NCBI GenBank assembly: GCA_946537195.1
Contig: CAMNFE010000001.1
Span: 4,435-68,434 of the forward strand
Direction of reading: 5' to 3'
DNA from: an uncultured Candidatus Saccharibacteria bacterium
Lineage (GTDB): Bacteria; Patescibacteriota; Saccharimonadia; Saccharimonadales; Saccharimonadaceae
DNA: 64,000 nucleotides
Shown: positions 18,435 to 54,870 of the stretch, in pieces
Numbering within the stretch: the stretch's first letter is position 1
Layout: each line of letters begins with the position of its first letter
Notes under the pieces: model-generated
What the model saw: the letters and a program-made list of their open reading frames with translations, nothing else
The model's database searches: none
What the model was told of the DNA's origin: nothing
Translations under genes and position numbers: made by a program

Positions 18435-18435
18435 A

Positions 18436-21160: not shown

Positions 21161-21166
21161 AGTTTT

Positions 21167-21172
21167 ATTATA
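21167..21172 (-). promoter_or_regulatory. -10 hexamer TATAAT, leaderless start of the pseudopilin sub-operon
   Basis: TATAAT-aaaact-ATG(21160). It lies inside the longer ORF-track start. Confidence 0.4.
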
Positions 21173-21220
21173 CATTATCATAAGCGTTTTTGCGATTATT
21201 TTAGTGCTTTTTTGAAGCTA

Positions 21221-24200
21221 TTAATATCTTGACGGCAACTCTTTAGTATAGGTTGTAATAGCTTGATTGTAGCGACTCATCTGGTTAAAAGTCCAAAGAT
21301 AAGTATCCATGCCCATATCAAATATTTCGGCGCGCACAATAGAGTTATTTCCACTGCCGGCACCGGCCGTGCGATGTAATGTTAGCTTCTTAGTTATAGC
21401 TGGGCCATTGAAAATTAGAGAGCTATTACAATGATTGGCGTCTAGAGTGCCGATACTGGTCATTACGCCATTCTGGAAGGAGCTAAAGCTATCGTAAGCG
21501 CAGGTGTTAAGTTCATCAGTTATAATAATGGCGTCTATGCGCGTAACTTTATTGGTAATAAATACCTTATCAGCTATAATGATGTTTTTCCTGGCTTGAG
21601 CTAGACGATCCAGAGTAGGATCGGCATCGAACGATCCGTTCCTAGCGTCTCCGACAATAATGTTCTCATCAATTACAAAAGTACCCTTAACGTCATAGAC
21701 CTCCGTCATATCTACGAGAGAATCATCGAGGTTTTGACTCCCAAGGCGACTAGTATTATTGGCTGCCGAACCTGAACCGAGATAGGCATTTCCGATTACT
21801 TTGTGATGGATGATATTGTTCGAATCTCTATTGTTGTTTAACAAGTTCGGCAAATAGGCATACTTTTTGCCGCCTGCAAGAATACAATGAGTTGTAGAAT
21901 TGCCGAATGTACTACAAGACGATTCAGGCATAGCGCCAGTACTGGTCGCCGTGATTTCTCCTGAGGTATAACGAGTCCTGATACGATCAGCAAATTGCGA
22001 TACGGTCTTTTTACCCACTTCCCCTTCTCCGACGTTATCGCTCGAGCAGTTAGCGTTTGCCAATGTTTGCGTAGAGAAAGAACAAGTACTACTAGTATTA
22101 CTTGGGGTAGCAACTTTATTGATTTCATTGTTAAAACGAGGGCTATTGACGGTTATACCCGTGTTCCCAGTTTGGTAGCCGAAAGTGGCACCAGAGGCAA
22201 AAGCATGCGCCCCCTGCGTGTTCACTTTACCGAAGACACCATATTCAGACCATGAACCAAATGTGAATTTGCCAGTCGCGAGCTCTTTGGAGGTTGTTGT
22301 TGTAACAAAACCTTCAGCATTACCAGAAAATGCGTTTGAGCCTTCAACGCTAAATGTCGGGCGCTTCGCAACTGTATTACAGGTTAACGCAACCTTTTTA
22401 CTGCTACCTTCGTTGGCTTTAAGGGCAACATCATTCGCACCGGCGCCAGTAACGGATTCCATATCATATGCATCGTGGCTATCTGCAGGACTGACCGAGA
22501 TACGCGCGCAAACACGTGTGCCGATAGGTAAGGTATCTGGGACGGGTATATCAAAGCTAACGTGATCGCTGCCGGCTTCGGCAAGCTTCTTATTGTCCCT
22601 GCTGACCGTTCCTTTCGTGTTACCAGTTTGGTTTAGGACACCGTCATAACTTCCAGAACTAATCGGAGTATTGCCAAATTCGTTTCCGGCCAAGTCGCGA
22701 TAGAAGTATTCTACTCTTATCTTTGTTTTCTTCGTAATGGTCGCATAAGTATTAGACGAATCATCGTTACTAATTGCAGTATTCTTACGAGGCGTGACAT
22801 AAACTTTAGTCGAAACTGGCATTTTACTGCCGCCGTAAACTACGTGTGATCCGGCTTCGCTATAAATTGCTGGTTGAGCTTTGTAGTTAAATGGTATTTT
22901 AACACTAGCTTTAGCGGTATACTGAGGATTTTGAGCGTAAGTTCCGTTAGGGACTCGATTGACTATCTTGAGATTATTCCATTGGATACTTTGTGTAATT
23001 GTCGCCCCAACATCTGACGTCTTGCTCGTAAAGTCCACTGAACGACAGTCGTTTGAGCTAGTTGAACCAGCAATTTGATAATGATTATCTTTAAAAGTTG
23101 AGGCGTTCGGAATATTCTTACAACTATACGAATCCTTACTATGTTCAGTGCGATTAGTTGTAGTTATCGAGGCGACCGACGGAGATAAAGCATTTAATAC
23201 TACGTTGTTATTGGTTGGGAATCCACTAGTGCCAGTGCTCCACCAAGTTCTATTGTCGGAATATTTACGCGGTTGTCCTGCAGCAGAGGTAATATTTGGA
23301 ACGCTTGCGCCGAAGAGATATCCACTTGAAGCAGGGTTCCTCTCGCCCTTAGCATAGTAACGGCTTTTATAGGTTGTATTATTGAGCGAAGAAGTGTTAT
23401 TAACAGTATATTGCGCACCAGCACAGCCTTGGTAGCTAAAACGAATCGAATCACCAGGGCGTGCCCAGGTGTCGGCCGCACTAACCGTGTGACCAGCAGC
23501 CGAACTTAAAGTGTTAGCGTTAGTTGGACTATATTTATAGCTATCTACGCCATTTACGGATGCATTGGAGGCACCGATGCGTGCGATATTTTGGCCATTA
23601 AGAATGCCATATTTATACTCTGTTGCTAGCGCACAGGTTAATGGTTTTCTTTTAATCTTAATACAGGCTTTTGAATTCTCGTTGGTAGAAGTTACGCCAG
23701 TATCTGCATAGTATTTATCTGGATGCTGCAGATTCTCGCAAACAGTAGTAGATTCCTCTGGCATCAATTTAATCGTATAAGTGGTTGCCGGAACATTGAC
23801 CGAAGCGGCATTAACGTTAACGGTCGGCGTACGATTCCCTGCTCCGCCACTAGATACGCCACCGCTATTAGAGAACGTAATTCTCGGACGGAAAGAAAAG
23901 TTCTGCGAAACGCCACGACGGCGAATCGTATGATTGAAGGTGACTGAAGTGTCTCGACTATCAACCATTACATATTGGTTGTTATTAATCGTAAGTGTAC
24001 CGTCCCAATCTGAAGTGCCTTCATAAACTGTCCCATTTACTGTCGCTGAGGTTTTGCTCCTTGAATCGATTAGGCTTGGACGATAGACCTTAGCGCAGAC
24101 TTTAGGTCCTTTATGTTCGGAACTATCCGTCCAACCATGGCCGTTGGTGAGATTTTTATAACCAATTTGTTCGCAATACTCTGCTCCATTTTCTGCATCA

Positions 24201-25267
24201 TCTGGAATTTTGAAATTGCGAATAATAAAACCGTTCGAGTTAAAGTCGCCACCTGCGTTACCGAAACGATTAACGCCATCAACTTTTTTAATACTAGCTT
24301 TGCCATTCCTACAAGCGTTACCAAAGTTTGGCGCTGCGCTAGTTCTGGCGGTTCCACCGTTATTGTAGAAAGTTGTCGTACAACGACTATCATTCGTCCA
24401 GTCATTTAAATTAGTGTAATAATGCTTGAATGTTACCGTTTCTCCAGGATGAGCATTCACGCTGACTTTGGCCTGAGTTGTATTGTAGGCCGTTTCGGAA
24501 CCATTGCGAGTCTTGTTTTTAATTGTGCTACGCGGAGTAATGCTTGGGCGATCGGCCTGGATTAGGAATTTCAGCTTCGACCAACCACATCCACTACCGT
24601 TATAACAACGTCGGACCCAAATTGCACCTTCGCGATATGTTCCTTTATCTACCAGATTATTAGCACCATAGGCTTCGATATACTTCTCCATCTTAACTTC
24701 GATCTGAGCGGTACCAACTGGCTTTGAAAAGCCGCCGCCGAAGCTACTACTCCATGAACCATTTGTTCGTTTAAAATAATGCCCCCAGCCATTACTAGTC
24801 TCCCAGCCACCTTTATATTTGAAAATGTCCGTCTGCGTACTGCCGCAACCGTTATAGGTACAGATTCTGACATTGGTCGCATAAACCGCAGCGGCAGGCT
24901 GATGAATTTGCCCCTGCATGCCAATTTTAATCGTGCCCGTAGCTGGTGCAAAATAATTTAGGTAAAGTTCATATTTACTGCCGTTGTTTGTAGACTTATA
25001 GCCTTTGCCATCTGAATAGAGGCCGGTTATATAGTAAATACCACGCTGAGAACCGCCACAGGCCCAGACTGGGTTTGCATGCTGAGGATAAGAGCCAGGA
25101 TAGTCGATCTCGCCGAACTTTTTATATGCTGTTTTTGGAGAATTCGGGATAAAAGTATTGTTGGCGTTACTGATACAGTCTGCATAAGTGTCTTGGCCAT
25201 TGATACCAAAAACCAAGAGCGCAGCGGCAACGATAAAGCCAAATATAAAGATTTTTTTAATTTTCAT
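21221..25267 (-). CDS. giant secreted protein (1348 aa), paralog of 26245-30522; unknown family
   Basis: Signal peptide MKIKKIFIFGFIVAAALLVFGINGQDTYA and no other TM helix. Composition is rich in N/T/S/G/Y/C. GGGAGAAGG RBS, 3 nt after the upstream stop. Blocks shared with the paralog include ARPGDSIRFSYQGCAGAQY, YATITKKT, ASVKIPFNYK, VCARISVSPADSHD, SVEGSNAFSG, FGSWSEYG, SGATFGYQTG and a terminal ELPSRY. Confidence 0.85.
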   Translation of the reverse strand: MKIKKIFIFGFIVAAALLVFGINGQDTYADCISNANNTFIPNSPKTAYKKFGEIDYPGSYPQHANPVWACGGSQRGIYYITGLYSDGKGYKSTNNGSKYELYLNYFAPATGTIKIGMQGQIHQPAAAVYATNVRICTYNGCGSTQTDIFKYKGGWETSNGWGHYFKRTNGSWSSSFGGGFSKPVGTAQIEVKMEKYIEAYGANNLVDKGTYREGAIWVRRCYNGSGCGWSKLKFLIQADRPSITPRSTIKNKTRNGSETAYNTTQAKVSVNAHPGETVTFKHYYTNLNDWTNDSRCTTTFYNNGGTARTSAAPNFGNACRNGKASIKKVDGVNRFGNAGGDFNSNGFIIRNFKIPDDAENGAEYCEQIGYKNLTNGHGWTDSSEHKGPKVCAKVYRPSLIDSRSKTSATVNGTVYEGTSDWDGTLTINNNQYVMVDSRDTSVTFNHTIRRRGVSQNFSFRPRITFSNSGGVSSGGAGNRTPTVNVNAASVNVPATTYTIKLMPEESTTVCENLQHPDKYYADTGVTSTNENSKACIKIKRKPLTCALATEYKYGILNGQNIARIGASNASVNGVDSYKYSPTNANTLSSAAGHTVSAADTWARPGDSIRFSYQGCAGAQYTVNNTSSLNNTTYKSRYYAKGERNPASSGYLFGASVPNITSAAGQPRKYSDNRTWWSTGTSGFPTNNNVVLNALSPSVASITTTNRTEHSKDSYSCKNIPNASTFKDNHYQIAGSTSSNDCRSVDFTSKTSDVGATITQSIQWNNLKIVNRVPNGTYAQNPQYTAKASVKIPFNYKAQPAIYSEAGSHVVYGGSKMPVSTKVYVTPRKNTAISNDDSSNTYATITKKTKIRVEYFYRDLAGNEFGNTPISSGSYDGVLNQTGNTKGTVSRDNKKLAEAGSDHVSFDIPVPDTLPIGTRVCARISVSPADSHDAYDMESVTGAGANDVALKANEGSSKKVALTCNTVAKRPTFSVEGSNAFSGNAEGFVTTTTSKELATGKFTFGSWSEYGVFGKVNTQGAHAFASGATFGYQTGNTGITVNSPRFNNEINKVATPSNTSSTCSFSTQTLANANCSSDNVGEGEVGKKTVSQFADRIRTRYTSGEITATSTGAMPESSCSTFGNSTTHCILAGGKKYAYLPNLLNNNRDSNNIIHHKVIGNAYLGSGSAANNTSRLGSQNLDDSLVDMTEVYDVKGTFVIDENIIVGDARNGSFDADPTLDRLAQARKNIIIADKVFITNKVTRIDAIIITDELNTCAYDSFSSFQNGVMTSIGTLDANHCNSSLIFNGPAITKKLTLHRTAGAGSGNNSIVRAEIFDMGMDTYLWTFNQMSRYNQAITTYTKELPSRY

Positions 25268-25269
25268 TA

Positions 25270-26202
25270 CTAGCCTTCTCCCTGCGTCGATTCTATTTCT
25301 TCCGATAATCTTTGGTCAAAAATGGTTTTATATTCATCAGCTTTCTCTTTATTGCCATTTTTCTTTTCTAGCTTATAAATAGTCTCCGCCGAAAGCGAAT
25401 TAGGATGCATACTTTCGGCTTTATACGCATCTGATATAGCTTGATCAAGTTCAGCTTTACCAGAGAAATTTTCATCGATAGCGATTGCGCGCTGTAGATA
25501 TAGAGCGGCTTTAGCTTCATCGGTTTTACTATTAGCAATCAGGTCATCATATATGGCCATGCCACCCGCATAATCGCCTTCTATAAATTTATTATTAGCA
25601 TTATCGCTATCTAATAAAGCCTGAAATACTTTTTCGTTATAAACCTCGTTGTTATGTTCCTTGTTGGCCATGGTTATTTTTTGAATTAGGAAAAAAGCAC
25701 CAATACCGATGAGGATAAGAGCAATTACACCAATCACAACACCACGACGAATAATATCGCGATTATCACGAATATCAAAAGCAAACTGTTCGCGCTTCTG
25801 ACGTCTTTCTTCACGTCGCTCTGAACGCTTTTGCCGTGAAGCTTCTTTTTGCTCGGCGCGCTTTTCATTTTCAAGTTTTTTAGCCGCTAAACGCTCTGCT
25901 TCGGCTTTACGACGTTCTTCTTCGCGTTTGCGCTTCTCGGCACCTTTGACGTTAACAAAAAGACTCTTGCCGTCTTTGCTCTCTATCTTGCTTGAATGAA
26001 ATTTAATATCTTCTTTGCTGATAGGGACGCCATCAATCTCAACGGTCTCACGTTTTTTACGAACTTCTTCTTCCTTGTTCGCCTGATTGTCCACGTGCTC
26101 ATCCGATGCACTCTTAATATTAGGCGACGAAAAACTAGCTTCGCTTGTGTTTTCTTCTTTCTTGCCCACCTCTCGTGAAGGCCCTGCGTCATTAACGCTC
26201 AT
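25270..26202 (-). CDS. single-pass membrane protein (310 aa): acidic N-terminus, K/E/R-rich charged helix, TM helix, TPR-like C-terminal domain; paralog of 30512-31573
   Basis: Shared motifs are SPNIKSA[SA]DE, ETVEIDG[VI]PI..EDI.F and LFVNV.GAEKR. TM helix VVIGVIALILIGIGAFFLI. Confidence 0.7.
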   Translation of the reverse strand: MSVNDAGPSREVGKKEENTSEASFSSPNIKSASDEHVDNQANKEEEVRKKRETVEIDGVPISKEDIKFHSSKIESKDGKSLFVNVKGAEKRKREEERRKAEAERLAAKKLENEKRAEQKEASRQKRSERREERRQKREQFAFDIRDNRDIIRRGVVIGVIALILIGIGAFFLIQKITMANKEHNNEVYNEKVFQALLDSDNANNKFIEGDYAGGMAIYDDLIANSKTDEAKAALYLQRAIAIDENFSGKAELDQAISDAYKAESMHPNSLSAETIYKLEKKNGNKEKADEYKTIFDQRLSEEIESTQGEG

Positions 26203-26208
26203 GCTAAT

Positions 26209-26217
26209 ATTTTAGCA
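26209..26217 (-). promoter_or_regulatory. extended -10 promoter (TGCTAAAAT), leaderless start of cassette 2
   Basis: TGCTAAAAT-attagc-ATG(26202), the same architecture as at 31580-31588. Confidence 0.55.
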
Positions 26218-26244
26218 CGAATTGGGCCTTCTTTTCGATAGTTA

Positions 26245-29200
26245 TTAGTAACGAGTTGGAAGTTCGCGAGAGTAGGTTGTAACGGCTTGGCTATAGCGAG
26301 ACATTTGGATATAGCTCCAGAAGTAAGTATTCATATTCATATCAAATGTTTCAGCGCGAACCGCAGTATTAGCACCCTTATCTGAGCCGCCCGTACGGTT
26401 AAGTATAATCTTCTTTGCCATTACTGGCGCATTGAACTGTACATGATTGTTACACATATTGGAGTTCATCATGACAGAACCAGATTCACCGCCAATTACA
26501 GCTTTCCTACCCTTAATGAAGTCTTCGTAGGTGTTGTATGCACAGGTGTTAATCTCGTTCGCAATCAATATCGCATCAACGCGTTCTACCTTATTGGTGA
26601 GATAGATTTTATCAGCAACGAAGACACGCATAACGGATTGACCGAGGTTAGTGTAAGTCGGATCATCGATAAAGTTGCTGGCATCACCGTCACCAATCAA
26701 GACATCACCGTCGAGGACGTAAGTACCACTTACCTCGTGGACGCTAGTAGCGTTGAATTGGCCGTTATCGAAGTTCGCTTTGTAGTAAACGTTCAACTTA
26801 TTATTGTTCGGACCGGTGCCGATTCTTTGTACGCCATCACCCCAATAGGCGTCGCCGTTTACCTTAAGGTGGTTAATGCCGTTTTCATCCCAGTCATGGT
26901 TAATCCAAGCTGGCATAAATGCGTACTTCGTAGTACTCGAGCCGTTGGTAGAGTCTTTTGCCTCAACGCATTTGACATTAGCGTACTGAGAATATCCACC
27001 TCTACCAAAGTAGTCATACGACCATCTACCAGCATCACCTGTAGTACATTGATTTTCGTAGTCATTCTTCTGAACGGCGCTAGCACTACCTGAAGTGAAA
27101 CGATCAAGAATACGGTTACGGAAGTCGCGCGCAGATGTCTTACCCATTCCCGCTTTACCAATTGTGTCGGTGGCTGTATTACAGTTTGAGTTGATAAAGG
27201 TTTGGGTCGCGTAGGTACAAGTTGTCGTGTTACTGGTTTTAGCTACGTTGCCACTATTAGAGCGAGTTTGATTTCTGACTATACCTGATGTGCCGGTTTC
27301 ATAACCGAAGGTTGCACCAGATGCTGTACCATGAATTCCGTCACTATCTACGAGACCATACAAACCATATTCTGACCATGATCCGAATAGATATTTAGTA
27401 GAACCGAATTGCTTGGTGAAGCGAGAAGTTATGAAGCCTTTACCATTACCGCTACCACTGTAGGCGTTAGAACCTTCAACGCTCATGGTTGGGAGTTTCG
27501 ATACGGTATAACATGCGCGTACAGTCAAGGTGTTATTAGGGCTCCAGATTGGATATTTCGAATCACTCGATAGAGCTATCTGCGCAATACTGGCTGCCGA
27601 ATTATCACCGTCGTGGCTATCAAATGGAGATACGCTAATTTCACCACAAACACGATCGCCTAGGTCAAGCTCGTCAGGAATATCAATAGTAATCGTATCC
27701 CAGACGCGACCATCTTCTATACTTTTAATTGTCTTATTTTCATTATCGGCGTCATTGTTTTTATCACCAGCCGTGCCGTTAAGACGGCCCGTGCGGTTCA
27801 GGATCCAGACTTCCTCTTTCTCGGAACCGGCGCCATAGTATGCCGAACAGCCACCAAAATAGCCTGAAGATTTACATTTCCTTGATCCGCCTGATGTTTC
27901 GACATACCATCTAGTCTTAATATGGGTAGGTTTCGTGATAGTTGCATATTCGTTCTTCGAGCTATCAGTAGAAACGTTAGTATTAGTACGACGCATAACC
28001 GTGACACCAGTATCGACGTTGAGTGTAGTACCGCGATAGACTACTTTACCGTCACGAGCAGAGCTACCACCTCTACGCTCAGCATGTGGAGCGAGTTTGT
28101 AGTTATACGGAATCTTTACGCTAGCTTTAGCGCCGTTATTGCTAGAGCCATTATGGACACCGTCGATCTGGTTGGTTGAAATCCTGTTATCGTCTACGCC
28201 TTGGTGATTAATGGCTTTAATCTTACGGTCCGTCCAGGTGACGGTCTGTGATATGACGGTACCGACATCGAGTAATCCGGTTGCACAGTTAGTACTCATA
28301 TCTGGCGAGCTGCTTGATGCAGTTTGACCTTTTATTCTACCCGATACTTGATAGAAGTTGTTTGGATTCGATGGACCATTACTGATCATACAATTATAGT
28401 TTTTATAAATTGAATTCGGTTTTTGAGGTGAAGTAAAGCTTGCATCAAACTTATCGTATGGGAATTTTTTGCTACCCGTAACATATTGATCAGCACTGTT
28501 GACTGTGCTAGTCCAAGTACGTGGGCTATGGAACGTAGTAGCGTTTTGACCAGAGACATTGTAGCGCGTTACCTGAGAATCAAAGAGGTACTGATTCTTT
28601 TTGGCGTCAGTATTAGCTTTCGGGTTAGTAGTGGTGCCAGACGCTCCATATTTTGTGACGTAAGATGCTTTATTTAAGAGATTCGGATATTGAGCTCCCG
28701 CGCAGAATTTGTAGGAATATTGAATTAAGTCGCCTGGACGAGCATAGAGGTCTGGAGCATCTTTTACGACACCCGTTCTTTCATAGTCCCTTGGCGCATG
28801 CGGAGAAGTCTTGGTGATACCCGTGGTTGCGTTGTTGACGCTGATATAGCCAACATTCCAGCCCTTATTGTAGCCATATTTATATTCGTCATAGTTAAAG
28901 TCTCCGCCACAGGACGCCTCGGCGCGTTGAATGGTCACACATTTTTCATCAGTATACGTCATATTAGAGGTCTTCCCTGCGTTAAGGGCCGTATTCTTTT
29001 CGTCATTTTTTGTCTGGAAGTGCAACTTTTGACAGAAGGTGACCTTTTGTTTTGGATGAATTGTGCCCTTAATTTCATTAGTAATCTGGTGCGACTGGTT
29101 CTTCTTCTTCGACGTCCAGGTACCTTTCTGGACGGTGCTTTTCTTGTTCACGCCATAATAGTTGCCTGTATCCTTAACGACGGTTTCATAAGATACATCT

Positions 29201-30522
29201 ACATTAAAATTGTCGTTATCAGTGCCTTTATAGCCATCAAGATTAATTACTTTGCCGCGCGTAATAGTATGCACGAATTTAACAGTAAATTTACCGTCTG
29301 TAGTGATAACGACATTATTGCTGCCTTTCGGATTGTCGCGCTCAGTCACAGCAGTACCGCTACCTTTATCGGCATAGACCTTGGTATTCGCAGAAAATTC
29401 AACCTGGCGATTTACGCGATATGAACTCAGACAGACTTCGTCAGTAAGGCCTGTCTTATCGTCGGTGGCTCTATCGGTATTCCTCACTTTATAATAGCTT
29501 AGCCTACTACAGTAGGTATATTTAGTGCCAGGAATAGGCGTAATTGGAACTGTATCGTTAAGAGTAGTGGTATCACCGATTTTATTAGAATGCCAATCTT
29601 TTTTAGTGTTATTAGGCGCTTTTGGAGTAGTGTTTTCTGATGTTTTGCGAGGTTTGGTTTCAAGCGGAGTCGTCACCCTAAAAGAACCGCTATCGCTGTT
29701 TTCATTGCGCCTTACTGTATGATCCCATTTTAAAGTAATACTATTTTTAGTGGTGTATTCGGGTTTATTCGGATCAGTAGATCCGTCACTGTTTTTATTT
29801 TTCGAAGTAGTCGCACTAAATTTAGCCACTTTATTAGTTGGGTAGCAGAACCAAGATAGCGAGTTGTAATCGCTCTTTTTGAGCGTGCCAACCTTAGTAC
29901 CGCTAGAGTTATATTTGATCATCTCATCCGGATAATCTTTTATCGCCTGCTCATATCTGCTCTTAGCGGTTGATTTTGTATAAGCGTCAATAGCAGTACC
30001 GCCGTCACCATTTTTATCTTTAAACTTAAATCCTTTAATTTTAGCCGTAGGGACGTCATGAATACTACCGCCACTACCGCTAGTATAGCTCGTACTACGA
30101 CTACCCACCTGGCCACGTCCACCATGTCCGTTATATTTGAACGAACCACCACGCGCAGAAACGTAGAACCAGCTGCTTCCAGGGTTGCCTGGCTCATCAC
30201 TCTCATAAATATCATAACCAAGGTGCATAAAACCACTACTACACCCCTTAATAACAGTTAAACCCGAGGTGCTATTTCCGACGAAATTAATTGCACCAGA
30301 CCCAAATCTCTCATACCACACCCAAGAAAAGCCACCTGAATCGCAGACACATGAGGACCACATAGCGTTGCCACATACGGCACAACCGCCACTACCGCTA
30401 GTGGCGCCGCCACCACCAGCATATGCATTCATACTAGTTTGCGAGCTTACTATTAAGCCAGCCACACTCAGAGTAGCAAGGCCGGCCGAGAAGTATAATG
30501 CTTTTTTAAGTTTATTCTTCAT
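26245..30522 (-). CDS. giant secreted protein (1425 aa), paralog of 21221-25267; unknown family
   Basis: Signal peptide ...SQTSMNAYA followed by the Gly/Cys-rich stretch GGGGATSGSGGCAVCGNAMWSSCVCDSGG. AAGGAG RBS 8 nt upstream, and the start overlaps the upstream gene by 11 nt. The C-terminal ~900 aa are collinear with the 1348 aa paralog and end in ELPTRY. Confidence 0.85.
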   Translation of the reverse strand: MKNKLKKALYFSAGLATLSVAGLIVSSQTSMNAYAGGGGATSGSGGCAVCGNAMWSSCVCDSGGFSWVWYERFGSGAINFVGNSTSGLTVIKGCSSGFMHLGYDIYESDEPGNPGSSWFYVSARGGSFKYNGHGGRGQVGSRSTSYTSGSGGSIHDVPTAKIKGFKFKDKNGDGGTAIDAYTKSTAKSRYEQAIKDYPDEMIKYNSSGTKVGTLKKSDYNSLSWFCYPTNKVAKFSATTSKNKNSDGSTDPNKPEYTTKNSITLKWDHTVRRNENSDSGSFRVTTPLETKPRKTSENTTPKAPNNTKKDWHSNKIGDTTTLNDTVPITPIPGTKYTYCSRLSYYKVRNTDRATDDKTGLTDEVCLSSYRVNRQVEFSANTKVYADKGSGTAVTERDNPKGSNNVVITTDGKFTVKFVHTITRGKVINLDGYKGTDNDNFNVDVSYETVVKDTGNYYGVNKKSTVQKGTWTSKKKNQSHQITNEIKGTIHPKQKVTFCQKLHFQTKNDEKNTALNAGKTSNMTYTDEKCVTIQRAEASCGGDFNYDEYKYGYNKGWNVGYISVNNATTGITKTSPHAPRDYERTGVVKDAPDLYARPGDLIQYSYKFCAGAQYPNLLNKASYVTKYGASGTTTNPKANTDAKKNQYLFDSQVTRYNVSGQNATTFHSPRTWTSTVNSADQYVTGSKKFPYDKFDASFTSPQKPNSIYKNYNCMISNGPSNPNNFYQVSGRIKGQTASSSSPDMSTNCATGLLDVGTVISQTVTWTDRKIKAINHQGVDDNRISTNQIDGVHNGSSNNGAKASVKIPYNYKLAPHAERRGGSSARDGKVVYRGTTLNVDTGVTVMRRTNTNVSTDSSKNEYATITKPTHIKTRWYVETSGGSRKCKSSGYFGGCSAYYGAGSEKEEVWILNRTGRLNGTAGDKNNDADNENKTIKSIEDGRVWDTITIDIPDELDLGDRVCGEISVSPFDSHDGDNSAASIAQIALSSDSKYPIWSPNNTLTVRACYTVSKLPTMSVEGSNAYSGSGNGKGFITSRFTKQFGSTKYLFGSWSEYGLYGLVDSDGIHGTASGATFGYETGTSGIVRNQTRSNSGNVAKTSNTTTCTYATQTFINSNCNTATDTIGKAGMGKTSARDFRNRILDRFTSGSASAVQKNDYENQCTTGDAGRWSYDYFGRGGYSQYANVKCVEAKDSTNGSSTTKYAFMPAWINHDWDENGINHLKVNGDAYWGDGVQRIGTGPNNNKLNVYYKANFDNGQFNATSVHEVSGTYVLDGDVLIGDGDASNFIDDPTYTNLGQSVMRVFVADKIYLTNKVERVDAILIANEINTCAYNTYEDFIKGRKAVIGGESGSVMMNSNMCNNHVQFNAPVMAKKIILNRTGGSDKGANTAVRAETFDMNMNTYFWSYIQMSRYSQAVTTYSRELPTRY

Positions 30523-31573
30523 CTTCGTCGCTCCTTATTTCTTCGCCTTCTATTTGCTCCCCTTCACCTTCCTCTTCATCATCTACAGGCTCTTCTTCTG
30601 GAGCTTCTTCTGGATCATCATATTGCTTGGCAATTTCCTCGTATTTACTGCCCTGCGAATCGTCGCCTTTCGAATAGTAGAGACGAGATAAGTTGCTATA
30701 GATATAGTGTTTAACGAATGATTTTTCAGAAGTATTAACTAGCTTAAGATTCTGATTAATACCTTCGTCAATATCTTTTGTAGCGCCATAAACGTTATAA
30801 TAGAAAGATTGAATCATGACCTTAAGGTCTGGATTCTGTTCGGAGTTTATCTTATCTTGCAAGAATTCTAGTTCTGAATCTACGCCCTGTTCGATACCGA
30901 TAGTTGAGGCTTCGTCAATGAGCTTATTAAAATTAGTCTCAATCTGCTGACCTCTGTATTCTTTTTGAACAGTAGTCGCCATACGCTTTTCGTATTCGGC
31001 AGGTTCGATAATGTTTATGCGAATTGCATTATAACCAACAAGAATAATCGCTAAAGCTACGATTCCGAGAGTAATAAACTTGTGTTTTCCGCCAAAGAAG
31101 AAATTACCGACTTTCTTCGCTCTTTGTACAGATCTTTCATGTCTCGCTTGACGGGCTTTTCGAGCCTGTTCTTTTTTGACTTGTCTTTCATGTTTAGCAG
31201 CCGCCTGTTTCTTTGCCTCCTCTTCGGCGTGGCGCTTCTCTTCGAGCTCCTTCTGCTTTTCTTTCTCGACCTTTTCTTTTTCTTTAGCCTCTTTCGCTTT
31301 TTTGCGCTCGGCTTCACGGGCGCGTTTTTCGGCACCCTCAACATTAACAAAAAGATCACCTGTATCTTTTTTCTTGATATTCTCGGAGCGGAACTGTATG
31401 TCCTCCTCCGCAATAGGAATACCATCGATTTCGACGGTTTCACCCGGTTTACTTGTATCCGCTGCCGAAGTATCCTCATTAATCGGCTCATCAGCAGCGC
31501 TCTTAATATTCGGCGACAGAGAACCGGTCTCCGTTACGCCCTCCTCTCGCATATCTGCGTCTTTAGCGCTCAT
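30512..31573 (-). CDS. single-pass membrane protein (353 aa): acidic N-terminus, K/E-rich charged helix, TM helix, helical C-terminal domain, acidic tail
   Basis: Paralog of 25270-26202. TM helix FITLGIVALAILVGYNAI. C-terminal DDEEEGEGEQIEGEEIRSDEDEE. Confidence 0.7.
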   Translation of the reverse strand: MSAKDADMREEGVTETGSLSPNIKSAADEPINEDTSAADTSKPGETVEIDGIPIAEEDIQFRSENIKKKDTGDLFVNVEGAEKRAREAERKKAKEAKEKEKVEKEKQKELEEKRHAEEEAKKQAAAKHERQVKKEQARKARQARHERSVQRAKKVGNFFFGGKHKFITLGIVALAIILVGYNAIRINIIEPAEYEKRMATTVQKEYRGQQIETNFNKLIDEASTIGIEQGVDSELEFLQDKINSEQNPDLKVMIQSFYYNVYGATKDIDEGINQNLKLVNTSEKSFVKHYIYSNLSRLYYSKGDDSQGSKYEEIAKQYDDPEEAPEEEPVDDEEEGEGEQIEGEEIRSDEDEE

Positions 31574-33265: not shown

Positions 33266-33598
33266 TTACTTCTTTGGGGGAGTAATATTTGCTGGACGTC
33301 CGTATTCCGGCATGGCCAGATCAACTTTTTCGCCACGGTGATTATAGAGCGGAATATTGAGTTGGCTAGAAATAGTATTAACTACCGTTGCGCCAATGCG
33401 GAGGCCAGTAAAACTACCCGGACCGACCATAAAAGTAATTTCTTCAATATCTTGCCAATCCTTCCCATTTTCCTGGAGTTTTTCGTGGATAAAACTATAG
33501 AGTTGTTTTGCGAGGTTGCGGCCAGATTCCCATTCGTAAGTTTTTTCGTCGAGTTTCATAACAGTCGTAGGCTGAGAAGTGTCTAAATATAATTTCAT
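33266..33598 (-). CDS. tsaB: tRNA t6A37 biosynthesis protein TsaB, short (110 aa, N-terminal half only)
   Basis: MKLYLDTSQ...ITFMVGPGSFTGLRIGATVVNTIS is the TsaB/YeaZ N-domain signature. Overlaps tsaE by 4 nt. Confidence 0.6.
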   Translation of the reverse strand: MKLYLDTSQPTTVMKLDEKTYEWESGRNLAKQLYSFIHEKLQENGKDWQDIEEITFMVGPGSFTGLRIGATVVNTISSQLNIPLYNHRGEKVDLAMPEYGRPANITPPKK

Positions 33599-33999
33599 TT
33601 CTCGCTCACTTCCCTTGTATTCTCGTCGATATACTTAATTTCAATGGTTTTGCGTTGTTCCGGCAAAACATCTTGGACACTCTGTCCCCATTCAACAATA
33701 GTGACCGTTTTTGGATCACTAATGGCTTCAATTAAATCTTCTGCCATAATTCCAGGGTCGTTTAAACGATAGAAATCGTAGTGGACAAGACGATAGTTTT
33801 CTCCGTTATATTCCTTAGAAAGCGTAAATGATGGCGAAGTTACATCCGCTTTTACGCCAAGACCTTTCGCGATTCCGCGCGTTAATGTGGTCTTACCGGC
33901 GCCAACATCGCCGAGTAGCTCCAAAACTAGTGGCGCTTTAAGCGTCTTACCGAGTTTTTGACCATATTTAAGCATTTCCTGTTCGGAATGGATTAACAT
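33595..33999 (-). CDS. tsaE: tRNA t6A37 biosynthesis ATPase TsaE
   Basis: P-loop GDVGAGKTTLTRG, SPSFTL and HYDFYRL. The ATG overlaps the comEC stop (ATGTTAA). Confidence 0.85.
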   Translation of the reverse strand: MLIHSEQEMLKYGQKLGKTLKAPLVLELLGDVGAGKTTLTRGIAKGLGVKADVTSPSFTLSKEYNGENYRLVHYDFYRLNDPGIMAEDLIEAISDPKTVTIVEWGQSVQDVLPEQRKTIEIKYIDENTREVSEK

Positions 34000-35471
34000 A
34001 CATATATTTTACCATATTCTGGAGATTTATCCAGAGCTGGACCACTTCTAAAACTATATTTCGTGCGGCGTTTGAGAGCATATACGACCAGCAAAATTGG
34101 AAAGTATAAAAGGAAAATAACGGGATTATGTGGCGGCATGGAGACTGCCGCCCATTTTATTTCGCTTAAATAATTAATCGTGAATATCTGGAACGACAAA
34201 AATGATTTGTCCAGAAAAAGGAACGGTATAGTCATGAGCCTCGGAAAAATACCTATCAGTGCCGTTAGTGCCATAACGGCTGGAATTACGGGAGTTACTA
34301 ATATATTTGCAACTATGCCAATGATTGATATTTGTCCGTAATAATATATGCTGATTGGCGCACAGAATAGCTGAGCCGAAATAGCAATAATAATCATTTC
34401 CGCAATAAAACTAGGCGATTTTTTACCGTAAAAATACTCGTTTAATAGCGGCGACAAAAACATAATCCCCGCGTAGGATGCAAACGATAGTTGCCAAGCT
34501 ATATTCATGATGATAGTTGGACTCGCAAGGATAGAAATCGCAATTACGTATATAAGAATTCTACCCGGATGAAACTTTCGACCAAAGTATTCTGCAATGA
34601 GAGCAAGGCTAGACACGAGGCCTGCCCGTAATAAGCTGGGGCTCAATCCAGTAATAGATATAAAAAGAACTATGGAGAGAAAGGCGATTGCGCAGCCTGC
34701 GAAGCGCGATATTTTACCGAATCATTTTTTGGCAAAATTGACCAAAACGGACAGACAATATCCGGATGCAACAACAATATGCGACAGACCAACGATTTTT
34801 AGCTTTTCTTTAAAATCAGAAGTGAGTGTTTTTTCGCCTATCAAAAAGCCGAGCGCTAAATCAGCTGAATCTGAATCACTAAAAGCTTCACGTACGCGAT
34901 GCGTAAAAAATTCACGTATTTGCATAGAAAAGTCAGGAGGATCGGGCTTGTCGATGGCGACGAGTTGCGGATGATAGATAGAGGCAATATATTCGCCAAA
35001 ACCCGTCTGGAGCTTTGCCTTAAGACTGACACGATCAGAACGCTTGATGTCATCTATCTTCCCCGCCATCGTGGCGTAAATTTGACATTTTAAACTGTTT
35101 GTGCTATAATTATAAGATAGGTCATTCAGTTTGAGTCTGGTTTGGCCCTTTTTTGTTTCTGGAGTATCGGAGACGGTAGCGCTAAGGGTAACAAATTTAC
35201 CGATATAGCTAGCACATCCACCCTCATCTGCTAAAACCTGCCCTATGCGTAATAATCCAATAAGAAACCCAGCAACAAGTGCAAATAATATACGGAAATA
35301 ATATCTAAAATAAAACGAGCAAAGCAGCAACAAACCAGACGCACACAAAATAATAATAGAGCCGAAGTTTCACTTAACAATAAGACCGAACAAATCCCCT
35401 AACAGTATGCCTACGCAAAACAAAAGAGGCACAATAGAAATATGGAGCGTTCGTTCTTTGCTTTTTTGCAT
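33993..35471 (-). pseudogene. comEC: ComEC/Rec2 DNA-uptake channel (short form, no MBL domain) interrupted by two in-frame TGA codons
   Basis: A single frame of 493 codons runs from ATG 35471 to TAA 33993. It contains TGA at 35372-35370 and at 34724-34722. ComEC hallmarks (GLSHIVVASGY; ITGLSPSLLRAG) lie on both sides, and there is no frameshift. Confidence 0.7.
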
Positions 35472-35483: not shown

Positions 35484-35513
35484 AATAACGCACAAAAAGT
35501 ACCAAAGCATAAG

Positions 35514-42670: not shown

Positions 42671-43291
42671 ATGTTAATGGTTGGTTCTAATATGACTAAC
42701 TTCCCAGTATTAAGCCTTCATGTAGGCGGTGAAGTTGCGCGTACGAAACGGGCAATCATTGACCCAGATAATTTAGAAATTATAGCTTATACCCTCGACG
42801 GCCCAATTATTCATAACGATCCAGAAGTTGGCGATATTCTCGATTTAATGGACGTGCGCGAAATAAGTGATAAAGGTTTTATTGTCGATTCGGCCGATGT
42901 TTTTACCTCCCGCGAAGACGTCGTCAAATTAGACGAAATTATGAGCTTGGAATTTGACTTAGTTGGCCTGAAAGTAGTTGATCAAAAAGGTAAAAAAATG
43001 GGCAAAATTATCGACTACACCATCGATTCTGGCAGTTTTATGGTGTACCAATTGATAGTCCAACGTCCTGTCATGAATTCTTTTCTTGATCCGCAACTAA
43101 CTATTAATCGCTCTCAGATTGTCGAAATCGATGATTTTAAAGTTGTGATTAAAAACAGTACTTCCCAGATTAAAGTTAAAAAGACTAAAACCGCAGAAAA
43201 AGAAGAAGAATTTGTTCCTAATTTCGTAAACCCATTTAGAAAACCGGGCTACGCAGAAGACGATTCGAGCTCTTCTAAAACATCTGAGTAA
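42671..43291 (+). CDS. PRC-barrel domain protein (two repeats), YlmC/YmxH-like
   Basis: Two ~80 aa repeats (VLSLHVGGEVARTKRAIIDPDNLEI...; LVGLKVVDQKGKKMGKIIDYTIDSGSF...). Confidence 0.5.
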   Translation: MLMVGSNMTNFPVLSLHVGGEVARTKRAIIDPDNLEIIAYTLDGPIIHNDPEVGDILDLMDVREISDKGFIVDSADVFTSREDVVKLDEIMSLEFDLVGLKVVDQKGKKMGKIIDYTIDSGSFMVYQLIVQRPVMNSFLDPQLTINRSQIVEIDDFKVVIKNSTSQIKVKKTKTAEKEEEFVPNFVNPFRKPGYAEDDSSSSKTSE

Positions 43292-43965
43292 TTAAAACCT
43301 TGTCGAACCAGATATTGAATGAGTTTTTGTTGGTCTTCGTAGCGATTGGCCTTGCGTGCAATTACTTTGCGGAGCTCTTCCCTTTCGTCCCGGGAATTAT
43401 CCGCCAAAACTTCTTCTATAATTTGTTGGCTGATGCCTTTTTTTATTAACTCGTTACGGAGTTTTTTGAGGCTAACACCTTTTTTGACATTACGATTTTC
43501 AACCCAAATTTCGGCAAAACGATGGTCGTCTAAATATCCACGTTCATCAAGTCGTTCGAGTACTAATGGAACGAGGCTAGGATCGTAACCTTCGCGAACT
43601 TTAGTTTGATACTCGCCAGTTTTACGATTTTTGACGCGAACTTTTTTGCTAAGAGTCTTGCGCTTAAGATAATCGCGGATTTCCTTTACGGAATGTGGGC
43701 GCATTAAGGTATATTCAAGTGCGCGTGCATAGAATTTGCCGAAATCCGATGCGCGTTTCAGTTCGATCAATTCTTCGTCGCTGAGCTCGCGTCCAATTTT
43801 AATGGCAAAATCAACAACTTGCGAAATATCGAGAGAACAATAAAACTTATCGTCAACGAAAATATTGACGCGATTTTTGTCACGAATAGCTTCCTTAATG
43901 TCTGTTACTCGATGAGAATGCTTTTTGGGAGCATCATCATCGAAAATCGTTATTGTATCGAGCAT
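43249..43965 (-). CDS. recX: recombination regulator RecX
   Basis: Three-helix repeats (...ALEYTLMRPHSVKEIRDYL..., ...ERLDERGYLDDHRFAEIWVENR...). TAATG overlap with recA. Confidence 0.8.
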   Translation of the reverse strand: MLDTITIFDDDAPKKHSHRVTDIKEAIRDKNRVNIFVDDKFYCSLDISQVVDFAIKIGRELSDEELIELKRASDFGKFYARALEYTLMRPHSVKEIRDYLKRKTLSKKVRVKNRKTGEYQTKVREGYDPSLVPLVLERLDERGYLDDHRFAEIWVENRNVKKGVSLKKLRNELIKKGISQQIIEEVLADNSRDEREELRKVIARKANRYEDQQKLIQYLVRQGFNYSDVLEELESSSA

Positions 43966-45029
43966 TAATCTTCGTCGTTTTTAGCGGCTTCACGAACTTT
44001 TGCCTCAATTTCATCCATAAGTTCTGGTTTTTCTTTGAAGAGTCGCTTAACAGCCTCACGGCCTTGGCCAAGTGTCTCACCATTGTACTTAAAGAAAGCG
44101 CCAGATTTTTCGACGATGCCATATTGTACAGAAAGATCGAGTACATCACCTGTTTTGCTGATGCCTTCGTTGTACATAATATCGAACTCGGCCGTGCGGA
44201 ATGGCGCAGCGATTTTGTTTTTAACGACTTTAATCTTTGTACGGTTACCAGCGATATTGTCGCCATCCTTAATTTGACCAATACGACGAATATCGACGCG
44301 TACTGATGCGTAGAATTTAAGAGCGTTGCCGCCGGTAGTTGTTTCTGGGTTGCCAAACATAACGCCGATCTTCATGCGAATCTGGTTAATAAATATTACC
44401 GTAGCTTTAGTCTTACTGATAATACCGGTCAGCTTGCGCATTGCCTGAGACATGAGGCGAGCCTGGAGACCCATCTGCGCATCACCCATATCGCCGTCAA
44501 TTTCAGCCTGCGGCACCAAGGCAGCTACAGAGTCGACAACAATCAAATCTACAGCACCAGAACGAACGAGCGTTTCACAAATTTCGAGAGCTTGCTCACC
44601 ATTATCCGGCTGAGAAATAAGCAAATCGTCGGTTTTTACGCCGATTTTACGCGCGTAAGCTGGATCTAGAGCGTGCTCGGCATCAATAAATGCTGCTTGG
44701 CCGCCTTGCTTTTGAATTTCAGCGATTGCATGTAACGCGAGAGTTGTTTTACCAGAAGACTCTGGGCCATAAATCTCAATAATACGGCCTTTAGGAAAAC
44801 CGCCGCCTAGAGCTAAATCGAACGCAAGCGAACCGCTAGAAAAAAGTTCAACATCAATCTTGGAATGCTCGCCCAATTTCATAATTGAGCCGTCACCAAA
44901 TTGTTTAGTAATCTGCGAAAGCGCAAGACTTAAAGCCTGTTTTTTGCCTTCGTCCATTGCGGATGCTTTTTTTGTATCTTTTTTATCTTTACCTGACGTA
45001 CCCACCGCTTCCTGACTCTTCTTAGCCAC
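43965..45029 (-). CDS. recA: recombinase RecA
   Basis: [13 protein letters not shown], the L1/L2 loops and full-length similarity to RecA. GTG start with an AGGAGG RBS. Confidence 0.97.
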
Positions 45030-54869: not shown

Positions 54870-54870
54870 A

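Follow-up and report, generated by a model that had tools for sequence, protein, structure and literature searches.

The comEC locus and its surroundings

We analyzed a window of 64,000 nucleotides from an uncultured Candidatus Saccharibacteria bacterium, whose minus strand carries a comEC-like gene (Table 1). Retranslation gave a single 493-codon frame free of frameshifts, with two internal stops that were both TGA, as the first-pass annotation had described. The same annotation stated that the list of open reading frames splits the gene into two pieces and misses the first 33 codons. The split was confirmed, the list containing three pieces (35370-35471, 33 amino acid residues; 34722-35348, 208 residues; and 33993-34646, 217 residues). 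Within the window, comEC is the only real gene whose long open stretches are parted by TGA, and the double-TGA pattern is far more than would be expected by chance.

Table 1. Positions of the features of the comEC locus in the window
Feature	Position	Strand	Remarks
comEC-like frame, complete	33993..35471	-	492 sense/recoded codons and the terminator TAA
Codons 1-33	35373..35471	-	Cytoplasmic tail and TM helix 1; H-x-S-x-x-P-L motif; upstream of the first UGA
In-frame TGA no. 1, codon 34	35370..35372	-	Context AAG TGA AAC, next base A; directly after TM helix 1
Codons 35-249	34725..35369	-	DUF4131/OB-like region and beginning of the Competence domain
In-frame TGA no. 2, codon 250	34722..34724	-	Context AAA AAA TGA TTC, next base T
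Codons 251-492	33996..34721	-	Remainder of the Competence (channel) domain and conserved C-terminal 'YGKIY.C' tail
comEC stop/tsaE start junction	33993..33999	-	Overlap; TAA 33993-33995, ATG 33997-33999
CTTATGCTT motif	35505..35513	-	Conserved; 34-42 nt upstream of the comEC ATG

The protein joined across both TGA codons matched PF03772 (Competence) with an E-value of 3.6e-36 at residues 212-469, unbroken across the second TGA; the score was 125 bits (cutoff 23), and positions 4-269 of the 270 in the profile were covered. TGA-250 lies within this domain, flanked by the conserved 'NFAKK' and 'FGKISRF'. TIGR00360 (ComEC_N-term) scored 70.8 bits (cutoff 36.5). In the case of PF13567 (DUF4131), the match at residues 39-155 reached 29.0 bits (E-value 1e-6), below the gathering score of 31.6, and a precomputed match to this family is present in many close homologs. 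Lactamase_B (the metallo-beta-lactamase nuclease domain) had no match in the joined protein, which ends at residue 492, and TIGR00361, the full-length ComEC equivalog, was not reached (57 bits; cutoff 190). The protein is thus the short ComEC-like form of Saccharibacteria, not the canonical three-domain equivalog. The top homologs were Saccharibacteria ComEC proteins with 59-60% identity, and the Saccharibacteria homologs are all similarly short (about 480-520 residues). In an alignment with 24 of these proteins, the joined protein kept all the invariant columns, and the H-x-S-x-x-P-L motif is kept in all homologs, whether they bear TGA or not. As codons 35-249 lie downstream of UGA-34, they can be translated only by readthrough of that codon, and codons 251-492, downstream of both UGAs, only by readthrough of both.

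The gene order MetRS, sulfatase, comEC, TsaE, TsaB, RNase Y is common to the window and two related loci (L001 and L002; related loci are designated by L and a number). The overlap of the comEC stop with the tsaE start points to a translationally coupled comEC-tsaE-tsaB operon. The CTTATGCTT motif sits in the 64-nt gap that separates comEC from the divergent sulfatase gene, and is probably a -10-like promoter element: 21 of 31 loci have T[ATG]TGCTT in front of comEC (about 0.05 expected). Another copy of CTTATGCTT, likewise intergenic, is present at 58295-58303 on the minus strand.

Recurrence of the TGA codons and selection on the frame

In-frame stops, one to five per gene, interrupt the syntenic comEC of related Saccharibacteria in about 60 independent assemblies, namely 33 of about 38 GTDB-species loci, which form one clade, and about 27 further metagenome loci. 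The syntenic comEC of L001 and L002 is interrupted in this way. The carriers are Nanosyncoccaceae-like and mostly from animal gut or rumen. Inside the comEC HSPs, we counted 44 + 43 TGA codons; across these approximately 60 loci, TAA and TAG were confined to the C-terminal end, and no frameshift was found. At least 23 alignment columns carry TGA, at positions that vary among lineages, and the sites interrupt helices and the invariant AWQLSF motif. A scan of metagenome contigs with a single protein gave no close relatives of the window comEC. In the public databases, the comEC entries of the closest relatives are N-terminally truncated fragments.

Comparison with the comEC orthologs of close relatives, which had been proposed as a check, showed TGA in some relatives and TGG in others at both window columns. 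At codon 34, TGA is present in 10 GTDB-species loci as well as the metagenome loci L083-L087 and L154 (the loci named are L001, L003, L005-L007, L009-L012, L083-L087, and L154), whereas L008 and L004 have TGG in this column, L008 being near-identical to L001. Codon 250 is TGA in L009, L011, L087, and L089, TGG in L004, and W in the protein P0004. Both are found again in species with saturation at synonymous positions, and TGA-34 is kept between lineages with dS>2. TGA-34 and a TGA at codon 3 are kept, without decay, in nearly all members of the clade despite saturated synonymous divergence.

Read errors, one of the explanations left by the first-pass annotation, are refuted by the presence of the same two TGA sites in independently assembled and deeply diverged relatives. 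Nothing specific favors a sequencing, assembly, or polishing error at the two sites, and TGA-250 is preceded by an A6 run; an indel would break the frame, which is intact, and both codons are TGA in assemblies from different projects and pipelines. We consider such an error extremely improbable.

The reading frame downstream of the TGA codons is under purifying selection. In close pairs sharing TGAs, dN/dS was 0.15-0.31, segments downstream of the TGAs included; it was 0.16-0.31 in codons 35-249 and 0.09-0.32 in codons 251-492, and below 1 in most pairs in codons 1-33, where substitutions are few. Neutrality was rejected for comEC with p=1e-28 (pooled pairs). The dN/dS of comEC is higher than that of the housekeeping neighbors (0.01-0.1) and of comEC in the TGA-free clades (0.03-0.14), so some relaxation of constraint is possible.

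These values bear on plain decay, in which comEC would be a pseudogene in the window genome or would be repeatedly in the course of loss in the clade. Read with the standard code, the frame has two premature stops, which, like a dN/dS above that of the housekeeping neighbors, would fit this explanation. However, the lesions are all TGA apart from the C-terminal end, the frame length and all the invariant residues are preserved, the frame downstream of shared TGAs is constrained, and identical TGA sites are common to lineages with saturated dS. A recent double-nonsense pseudogene, as previously suggested, is refuted by the same sharing of sites and by the purifying selection. The frameshifts and deletions that had been named as the signature of decay were absent from close relatives, as were TAA and TAG lesions. 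We regard decay as highly improbable.

Tryptophan positions, codon context, and UGA in other genes

TGA and TGG interchange at the same comEC columns, including the near-invariant Trp326, where L005-L007, L012, and L026 have TGA. An 81%-W column (window residue 294) is TGA in L016, L020, L025, and L045, and in close relatives TGA stands in place of TGG at columns 34, 40, 166, and 250. The share of W at TGA columns is 15.3% against a background of 1.6% (9.4-fold), while Gly is at 0.4-fold and Cys at 1.2-fold of background. Column 250 is rarely Trp elsewhere. The residue that would be inserted at the comEC UGAs is most probably tryptophan, judging from the aligned columns.

Selenocysteine, which is encoded by UGA, is an extremely improbable alternative, as the TGA columns align with Trp and show no enrichment of Cys, and the sites are numerous and shifting. 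The predicted structure in the 60 nt downstream of TGA was no greater than that of TGG controls (MFE -8.4 and -9.2, respectively; p=0.21), so that no excess of a stimulatory structure was found, and neither the window nor the loci yielded a selenocysteine tRNA. Downstream RNA structures are dispensable in some cases of readthrough.

Termination is weakest at the tetranucleotides UGA-A and UGA-C. Among 68 unique contexts of in-frame TGA codons in comEC, 52 (76%) have A or C as the next base, compared with 43% for the TGG codons of the gene (chi2 p=8e-16). Of the two window sites, TGA-34 precedes A and TGA-250 precedes T, which is a strong termination context. The TGAs also show a 5' bias within comEC: of 26 lineages, 22 have TGA as their first Trp-like codon, compared with an expectation of 7.8.

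This context is relevant to an on/off toggling of the gene, in which the TGA alleles are null at present, revert to TGG by one transition, and are kept by a periodic ON state. Toggling would account for the alternation of TGA and TGG between near-identical genomes (L001 and L008 at column 34, and L003 and L005-L007 at W326) and for the somewhat elevated dN/dS of comEC. On the other hand, TGG to TAG is equally easy and reversible, yet there was no TAG at Trp columns, and the bias for A or C after TGA is relevant only if ribosomes reach the codon and sometimes pass it. Moreover, an all-TGG 'ON' state is found in almost no lineage of the clade, and the persistence of TGA-34 and the codon-3 TGA described above does not fit alleles that come and go. 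Toggling is therefore unlikely, although it is the least improbable of the alternatives.

It is also conceivable that the pieces are made separately, by termination at UGA and re-initiation, and assemble into a channel. Gene callers do output separate pieces, and split membrane proteins are possible in principle. However, the next in-frame ATG, GTG, or TTG lies at a median distance of 11 codons after 47 TGAs, with no SD-like motif at any of them. In the window, the next start after TGA-250 is 26 codons on, also without an SD-like motif, and a restart would remove the conserved S255, R256, F270, and G275, of which S255, F270, and G275 are invariant. The TGA columns vary by lineage, sever helices and AWQLSF, and have TGG in close relatives. 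A split gene is very unlikely.

In the genes around comEC, UGA is an ordinary stop. No TGA was found at about 2,850 Trp positions of neighboring genes (about 295,000 aligned residues from about 40 gene families), a sample of genes up to approximately 10 kb from comEC, to which the exclusivity of comEC applies. In the clade, comEC has 61 TGA and 132 TGG, compared with 0 TGA and 1,679 W in the neighboring genes (Fisher p=4e-65), and the metagenome contigs repeat this result, with no internal TGA against 1,172 W in non-comEC genes. A family-agnostic scan of 1.54 Mb for split open reading frames revealed only ordinary gene junctions and no second TGA-split gene, and tblastn with 62 window proteins likewise gave ordinary junctions and no other gene with an in-frame TGA. 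Mixed TAA, TAG, and TGA 'stops' in the HSPs of w16899_18605 and w42632_43291 were set aside as an artefact of over-extended ends of open reading frames.

TGA ends 36 of 346 genes in the clade loci (10.4%) and 12.5% elsewhere, with no clear difference. In the window, it terminates 6 of 59 other long open reading frames, in agreement with the earlier statement that TGA is a real stop there. The tsaE stop is a TGA within an ATGA overlap, whose position is kept in 37 of 43 related loci; RNase H, glgB, and the dacA-like open reading frames also end in TGA at conserved positions. As previously proposed, glgB ends at a genuine TGA, since its Alpha-amylase_C domain reaches residue 665 of 667, and the dacA-like gene, a Peptidase_S11 open reading frame, terminates at 10476-10478. 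At orthologous junctions, L013, L016, and L045 have TGA and L003 has TAA. Back-up stops follow TGA terminators at a median of 6 codons compared with 10-14, a weak signal from loci that are not independent.

A genome-wide reassignment of UGA (code 4 for Trp or code 25 for Gly), or an ambiguous code of which comEC is the visible case, is suggested by the presence of UGA at Trp positions, by the scarcity of TGA terminators (about 10%), and by known reassignments of UGA to both Trp and Gly in Patescibacteriota (PMC13092985). The lack of TGA at Trp positions of other families, the conserved TGA ends, and the depletion of Gly at TGA columns argue against it, and, read with code 11, the window has a coding density of 93% and long open reading frames without interruption. 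We thus agree with the earlier rejection of code 4 or 25 and judge a genome-wide change highly unlikely.

The decoding machinery was also sought. With ARAGORN, the window and 75 loci gave tRNAs for Leu, Met, Pro, Arg, Ser, and Lys only, and no tRNA-Trp, UGA-reading tRNA, or selenocysteine tRNA; Rfam gave tRNAs and nothing else in the window. A six-frame search of all loci (about 2.5 Mb) for the GGQ motif of release-factor genes gave two chance matches only, and prfA, prfB, and prmC were not among the approximately 45 Pfam-annotated open reading frames of the window.

Two further possibilities were set aside. Bacterial TadA requires a U-A-C-G loop, not G-A, which speaks against A-to-I editing of UGA to UGG in the mRNA. 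Horizontal transfer of comEC from a code-4 donor does not agree with the gene tree and synteny, which are Saccharibacterial, or with the TGG-to-TGA changes, which are recent and ongoing.

Possible readthrough of UGA and its significance

Taken together, we think it probable that comEC is an intact, selected gene in which a gene-specific readthrough of UGA as Trp competes with release factor 2 (RF2) and limits the synthesis of ComEC. Tolerated or programmed readthrough had been listed among the earlier options, and it gains support here as a clade-wide and comEC-specific trait that is not peculiar to the window genome. Both UGAs would be translated, most probably as tryptophan, by a tRNA-Trp that reads UGA through third-position C:A mispairing or, alternatively, by a UGA-proficient tRNA-Trp variant. 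This tRNA would compete with RF2, and termination would prevail part of the time; each UGA would then act as a leak valve, with full-length ComEC coming from a fraction of the ribosomes. With the first UGA at codon 34, the aborted products would be short. The arrangement appears to have been inherited and maintained across the Nanosyncoccaceae-like clade of animal gut and rumen, in comEC only, while ordinary genes still end in UGA. We infer that translation passes through the comEC UGAs, and that the purpose is to keep the amount of the DNA-import channel low or conditional; a possible reason for throttling is that comEC shares an operon with the essential tsaE and tsaB.

The efficiency of the readthrough is a difficulty. 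L020 and L025 carry four to five UGAs in comEC and would need a high efficiency at each site, since near-cognate leakage of a few percent at four to five UGAs would leave almost no ComEC protein. Efficient readthrough ought also to extend other UGA-terminated proteins, of which the back-up stops are a weak hint.

The classic programmed readthrough of UGA as Trp by near-cognate tRNA-Trp is that of the phage Q-beta coat/A1 gene, and UGA is naturally leaky in Bacillus subtilis. As in these systems, comEC would have a UGA in a leaky context, read sub-stoichiometrically by tRNA-Trp against RF2, with a conserved stop and a selected downstream frame. In those systems, however, one site extends a complete protein and two useful products result, whereas comEC has one to five UGAs inside one membrane-channel domain, and only the readthrough product could work. 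Furthermore, the comEC sites move among lineages, and the trait is chromosomal, restricted to one cellular gene, and clade-wide.

UGA encodes Trp (table 4) in Mycoplasmatales, Hodgkinia, Nasuia, Zinderia, and the Patescibacteriota family JAKLIH01 (PMC13092985). The comEC clade resembles these in the exchange of UGA and UGG at Trp positions among relatives, in the AT-biased small genomes, and in the precedent within the phylum. It differs in that table 4 is genome-wide, RF2 being lost and UGA terminators absent, while the comEC clade ends about 10% of its genes in UGA. Variants of tRNA-Trp(CCA) that read UGA (with a 4-bp anticodon stem, A9C, or the G24A 'Hirsh' change) are present in many bacteria that also end genes with UGA; such variants raise UGA readthrough in Escherichia coli and coexist with RF2, and the 4-bp-stem form has been recorded for one Saccharimonadales genome (PMC13092985). 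They are a plausible molecular agent for comEC and remain a candidate in its clade. That study covers tRNAs, not their natural target genes. In the eukaryotes Condylostoma and Blastocrithidia, which have context-dependent ambiguous stop codons, one codon is both Trp and stop in the same genome, as would be the case in the comEC clade; their ambiguity is genome-wide and settled by how close the codon lies to the 3' end of the mRNA, unlike that of the clade, which is confined to comEC.

The autoregulation of prfB depends on an RF2-sensing +1 frameshift at a CUU UGA C site with an SD-like stimulator. An early in-frame UGA likewise would tie the output of comEC to the activity of RF2; unlike in prfB, the frame is unchanged, and a stimulator was looked for and none was found. 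In the comEB-comEC genes of B. subtilis, translational coupling and a weak RBS hold ComEC low (bioRxiv 10.1101/2020.12.30.424838). The amount of ComEC would be limited at translation within an operon in both cases, by coupling and a weak RBS in B. subtilis and by readthrough of a stop codon in the comEC clade. A full-text literature search found no report of an in-frame UGA in Saccharibacteria comEC.

To our knowledge, ComEC is the sole known route of entry of DNA, and possibly of nucleotides, in these epibionts with reduced genomes. Pipelines that use code 11 will mark comEC as fragmented, pseudogenized, or absent across the gut and rumen clade of Saccharibacteria, and such an annotation would falsely imply a loss of competence. 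For the evolution of the genetic code, a standard-code bacterium would use UGA as a stop and also, within one gene, read it as Trp. This state resembles the proposed 'ambiguous intermediate' of UGA-to-Trp reassignment, limited to a single gene, in a phylum with several UGA reassignments. For regulation, the arrangement suggests a cheap, regulator-free throttle for a potentially harmful channel that is co-transcribed with essential genes. comEC also offers a concrete natural target for testing the in vivo role of the recently catalogued UGA-reading tRNA-Trp variants.

A further idea, which we put forward tentatively and consider rather doubtful, is that in an entire family of animal-gut Saccharibacteria UGA serves as a conditional, gene-private Trp codon that gates ComEC, the early UGA being actively maintained near the 5' end and in leaky UGA-A or UGA-C contexts, and having been gained independently at least six times. 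If so, DNA import and competence would be on only when UGA suppression is high, as could result from a UGA-proficient tRNA-Trp, a low activity of RF2, or a high supply of tryptophan from the host, and natural suppression of a stop codon would be the switch that regulates one cellular gene in a bacterium with a standard-code genome.

The comEC frame and its recurrence in relatives

The first-pass annotation had read comEC of the window as one 493-codon frame with two in-frame TGA codons. Retranslation confirmed this reading, as codons 34 and 250 were the only internal stops. Mechanical ORF calling breaks the frame into three pieces of 33, 208, and 217 aa. With both stops masked, the Pfam Competence domain (PF03772) gave one unbroken match over residues 212-469, across the second TGA (E=3.6e-36), and the protein passed the TIGR00360 ComEC_N-term threshold. 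A beta-lactamase domain was absent in the domain search of the masked protein, which also fell short of TIGR00361, the full-length ComEC equivalog; the window ComEC is the short form (about 490 aa) typical of Saccharibacteria. Its top database homologues were 59-60% identical (the named ones being 'Candidatus Saccharibacteria' ComEC/Rec2), and it retains all invariant columns of an alignment with 24 homologues.

Features of the window and of related comEC loci
Feature	Position	Strand	Remark
comEC frame	35471->33993	minus	493 codons, single frame, terminal TAA 33993-33995
In-frame TGA, codon 34	35370-35372	minus	internal stop of comEC
In-frame TGA, codon 250	34722-34724	minus	internal stop of comEC
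comEC stop / tsaE start	TAA 33993-33995, ATG 33997-33999	minus	overlap, sequence ATGTATGTTAA
CTTATGCTT motif copies	35505-35513, 58295-58303	minus	second copy in another intergenic gap
Large ORFs without Pfam match, cluster 16899-31573	21221-25267 (1,348 aa), 26245-30522 (1,425 aa)	minus	
Pilin-like ORF	19305-20150	minus	N-terminal methylation motif; adjoins large-ORF cluster
PilB/T2SSE ATPase	52724-54334	plus	
RecA-RecX	43249-45029		
RuvB	62891-63892		
ATG-NNN-TGA subclade (related loci)	L018 1553-1561; L021, L029, L031, L037, L019/L080, L013, L024, L016/L045		example ATG AAA TGA ATT CAT CGT CCG CAC

The nearest database proteins were unusually short at the N-terminus. In two related loci with the gene order of the window (MetRS, sulfatase, comEC, TsaE, TsaB, RNase Y), L001 (ENA) and L002 (JGI), the comEC frame extends upstream of the called start via in-frame TGAs: two in L001, one of them exactly at the codon-34 site, and one in L002. 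We scanned a single genome for each GTDB species and obtained 80 comEC loci, the majority of them rumen, gut, or faeces MAGs from ruminants, horse, and deer, several labelled Nanosyncoccaceae. One large clade in the ComEC tree (hereafter the TGA clade) comprises about 38 loci, 33 of which have 1-5 in-frame stops, all TGA; among these 80 loci, no in-frame stop was found in other Saccharibacteria clades, including Microsaccharimonas. An independent scan of metagenome contigs gave about 27 further TGA-bearing loci, among which L087 has TGA at both window sites. The closest relative found (L089; 63% identity over residues 173-492) has TGA at 250, 434, and 440. TGA recurs in relatives at both sites. 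As different projects and assemblers yielded identical codons, read or polishing error, an explanation left standing by the first-pass annotation, was excluded.

Outside the TGA clade, TGA interrupts the comEC region of the outgroup locus L065 (CAYODV010000002.1) twice in frame, at window-equivalent residues 97 and 114; this could have arisen independently or could be an artefact of the alignment or of the upstream region. In L053 (13035-13037) and L061 (6368-6370), both TGA-free outgroup genomes, a TGA separates two long ORFs in one frame (about 550 and 590 codons), and may mark an ordinary junction or a further UGA-interrupted gene.

Constraint on the frame and identity of the UGA codons

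The recent double-nonsense pseudogene that had also been proposed was refuted by the shared sites, the selection on the frame, and the nature of the stops. The window has TGA-34 in common with lineages that have diverged to dS>2 and share about 51% amino-acid identity with it. A dead gene would have lost the intact 490-codon frame over such divergence, and it would not have gained TGA exclusively, since TGG to TAG, CAA to TAA, and frameshifts arise no less easily. Between close pairs sharing TGAs, comEC dN/dS was 0.15-0.31, including segments that stay untranslated if the first UGA is a full stop; four independent pairs pooled gave 92 nonsynonymous changes at 4,385 sites versus 129 synonymous changes at 1,375 sites (neutrality p=1e-28). 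comEC is therefore under constraint in the TGA clade. This constraint is perhaps somewhat weaker than elsewhere: dN/dS was 0.03-0.14 for comEC in TGA-free clades, at larger divergence, and 0.01-0.1 for neighbouring housekeeping genes, with some other neighbours at 0.2-0.3.

The TGAs were assigned to the columns of an alignment of 78 reconstructed comEC frames. The near-invariant W326 of the AWQLSF motif (elsewhere 72 W and 1 F) is TGA in L005, L006, L007, L012, and L026, and the residue 294 column (W in 60/74) is TGA in L016, L020, L025, and L045; columns 40 and 166 show the same pattern. The codon-34 column has TGA in 10 loci and TGG in L004, L008, and L015; L008 and L001 are 98% identical, yet differ by TGG versus TGA there. 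At the codon-250 column, TGA occurs in the window, L009, L011, L087, and L089, and TGG in L004. In the 23 TGA columns, 15.3% of the residues of the remaining sequences were Trp (background 1.6%; 9.4-fold), Gly was depleted (0.4x), and Cys and Arg were at background. By these alignments, the in-frame UGA of comEC acts like a codon for Trp rather than for Gly (code 25) or Sec; with Cys at background, a selenoprotein was ruled out.

Ordinary use of UGA outside comEC

The first-pass annotation had rightly excluded a simple code 4 or code 25 genome, because real genes in the window end at TGA. The final Pfam domain of the glgB-like ORF closes 2 residues ahead of its TGA, the Peptidase_S11 (dacA-like) ORF terminates at TGA 10476-10478, and the tsaE TGA, in an ATGA overlap with tsaB, is identical in position in 37/43 related loci. 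Read with table 11, 93% of the window is coding and its longest ORF has 1,425 aa; the 61 long ORFs end with TAA (42), TAG (11), or TGA (8, of which 2 are comEC pieces).

When 62 window proteins were used as tblastn queries against the genome and metagenome loci, 44 in-frame TGAs fell within comEC HSPs in 82 genome loci, and essentially none in other families over about 240,000 aligned residues; a few mixed TAA/TAG/TGA matches outside comEC sit at over-extended ORF ends. Counted within the TGA clade only, comEC contains 61 TGA and 132 TGG, and not one of 1,679 Trp positions in its neighbours is TGA (Fisher p=4e-65). The metagenome loci gave the same picture, with 43 TGAs in comEC and none among 1,172 Trp positions of other genes. 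We also searched 1.54 Mb, without regard to gene family, for long ORFs in one frame separated by a single stop; the stops were TGA 20, TAG 2, and TAA 1 within comEC, and TAA 46, TAG 30, and TGA 7 outside it, which is terminator usage at ordinary gene junctions. Some of these junctions have TGA in L013, L016, and L045 where L003 uses TAA; the same genomes thus use UGA both as terminator and inside comEC.

In the window, a 568-aa GTG-started ORF (16899-18605, minus) overlaps the upstream gene (18436-19305, minus) by 170 nt, and its HSPs to relatives cross mixed TAA/TAG/TGA; its start is therefore over-extended, which explains non-comEC 'stops' in the tblastn comparisons. The rplS (L19) ORF (54411-54869, plus) and an unusual RNase HII-UPF0102 (YraN-like) fusion (54799-55791, plus) overlap by 70 nt in different frames, and the TTG start of the latter is probably over-called. 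The large-ORF cluster, the pilin-like ORF, and the PilB/T2SSE ATPase look like type IV pilus/competence machinery; no in-frame TGA was found in these window ORFs.

Where genes of the TGA-clade loci (a subset of L001-L045) and the window terminate with TGA, the median distance to the next in-frame stop is 6 codons, and 56% have one within 6; after TAA/TAG terminators in TGA-clade loci the distance is 10-14 codons, and other clades show no such difference. These short distances, from phylogenetically non-independent loci, may represent back-up stops against leaky UGA.

Putative partial termination and readthrough in comEC

The leakiest termination signals are UGA-A and UGA-C. Of 68 unique in-frame TGA contexts, 52 (76%) have A (28) or C (24) as the next base, versus 43% after TGG in the same gene (A alone 9%; chi2 p=8e-16). 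In-frame TGAs also crowd toward the 5' end of the gene: in 22/26 representative lineages (7.8 expected) TGA is the first Trp-like codon, and 31/33 TGA-bearing genome loci have a TGA within the first ~42 codons. The early sites differ among subclades (2, 3, 8, 20, 29/30, 34, and 38-42), which implies several independent gains. In one whole subclade the UGA is at codon 2-3, immediately ahead of the conserved H-x-S-x-x-P-L motif; no relative has TGG at the codon-3 column, and this UGA looks like a maintained stop rather than a Trp synonym. Neither bias is expected of a codon freely interchangeable with TGG; both are understandable if ribosomes sometimes terminate at comEC UGAs, since aborting early costs little and weak contexts would be preferred. 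We found no restart signal after the TGAs (next in-frame start at a median of 11 codons, SD-like motif in 0/47) and no extra RNA structure downstream.

Of the explanations offered by the first-pass annotation, only readthrough stood, and we consider functional UGA-to-Trp readthrough in comEC a likely reading of these sequences. UGA would be decoded as Trp in competition with RF2, possibly through leakage of the ordinary tRNA-Trp(CCA) or through a UGA-proficient variant of this tRNA, and full-length ComEC output would be reduced or conditional. Genomes with 4-5 comEC UGAs (L020, L025) would require high per-site efficiency, for which this mechanism offers no account.

As judged from sequence, the mechanism would work like the UGA-to-Trp readthrough of phage Q-beta. 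It differs from the code 4 and code 25 class, as neither genome-wide use nor absence of UGA terminators was found, and resembles an 'ambiguous intermediate' on the way to code 4. UGA-to-Trp reassignment was recently described in another Patescibacteriota family, JAKLIH01 (PMC13092985); the table of that paper includes one Saccharimonadales genome, with a 4-bp-stem tRNA-Trp. Our full-text literature search found no report of in-frame UGA in Saccharibacteria comEC.

The conserved motif CTTATGCTT occurs 20-75 nt upstream of comEC in 21/31 loci (L013-L045) versus about 0.05 expected, and probably represents a -10-like promoter element typical of the lineage; the ATG within it starts a short upstream ORF in some loci. 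TsaB (33266-33598, minus) is 110 aa and matches positions 2-89 of the 212-position TIGR03725, with the RNase Y gene beginning 123 nt beyond; since L001 and L002 have the same 110-aa call, the half-size TsaB appears normal for the clade, not a truncation.

comEC seems to be the first gene of an operon that also carries essential t6A genes. Throttled translation would, speculatively, make the abundance of a channel that is scarce and potentially harmful independent of how strongly the operon is transcribed; TGA-free relatives have the same synteny. That readthrough is an adaptive gate, not mere tolerated leakiness, is a tentative suggestion that we rate below even chances. Because the comEC TAA overlaps the tsaE ATG, the essential tsaE and tsaB would be translationally coupled to a UGA-interrupted gene.
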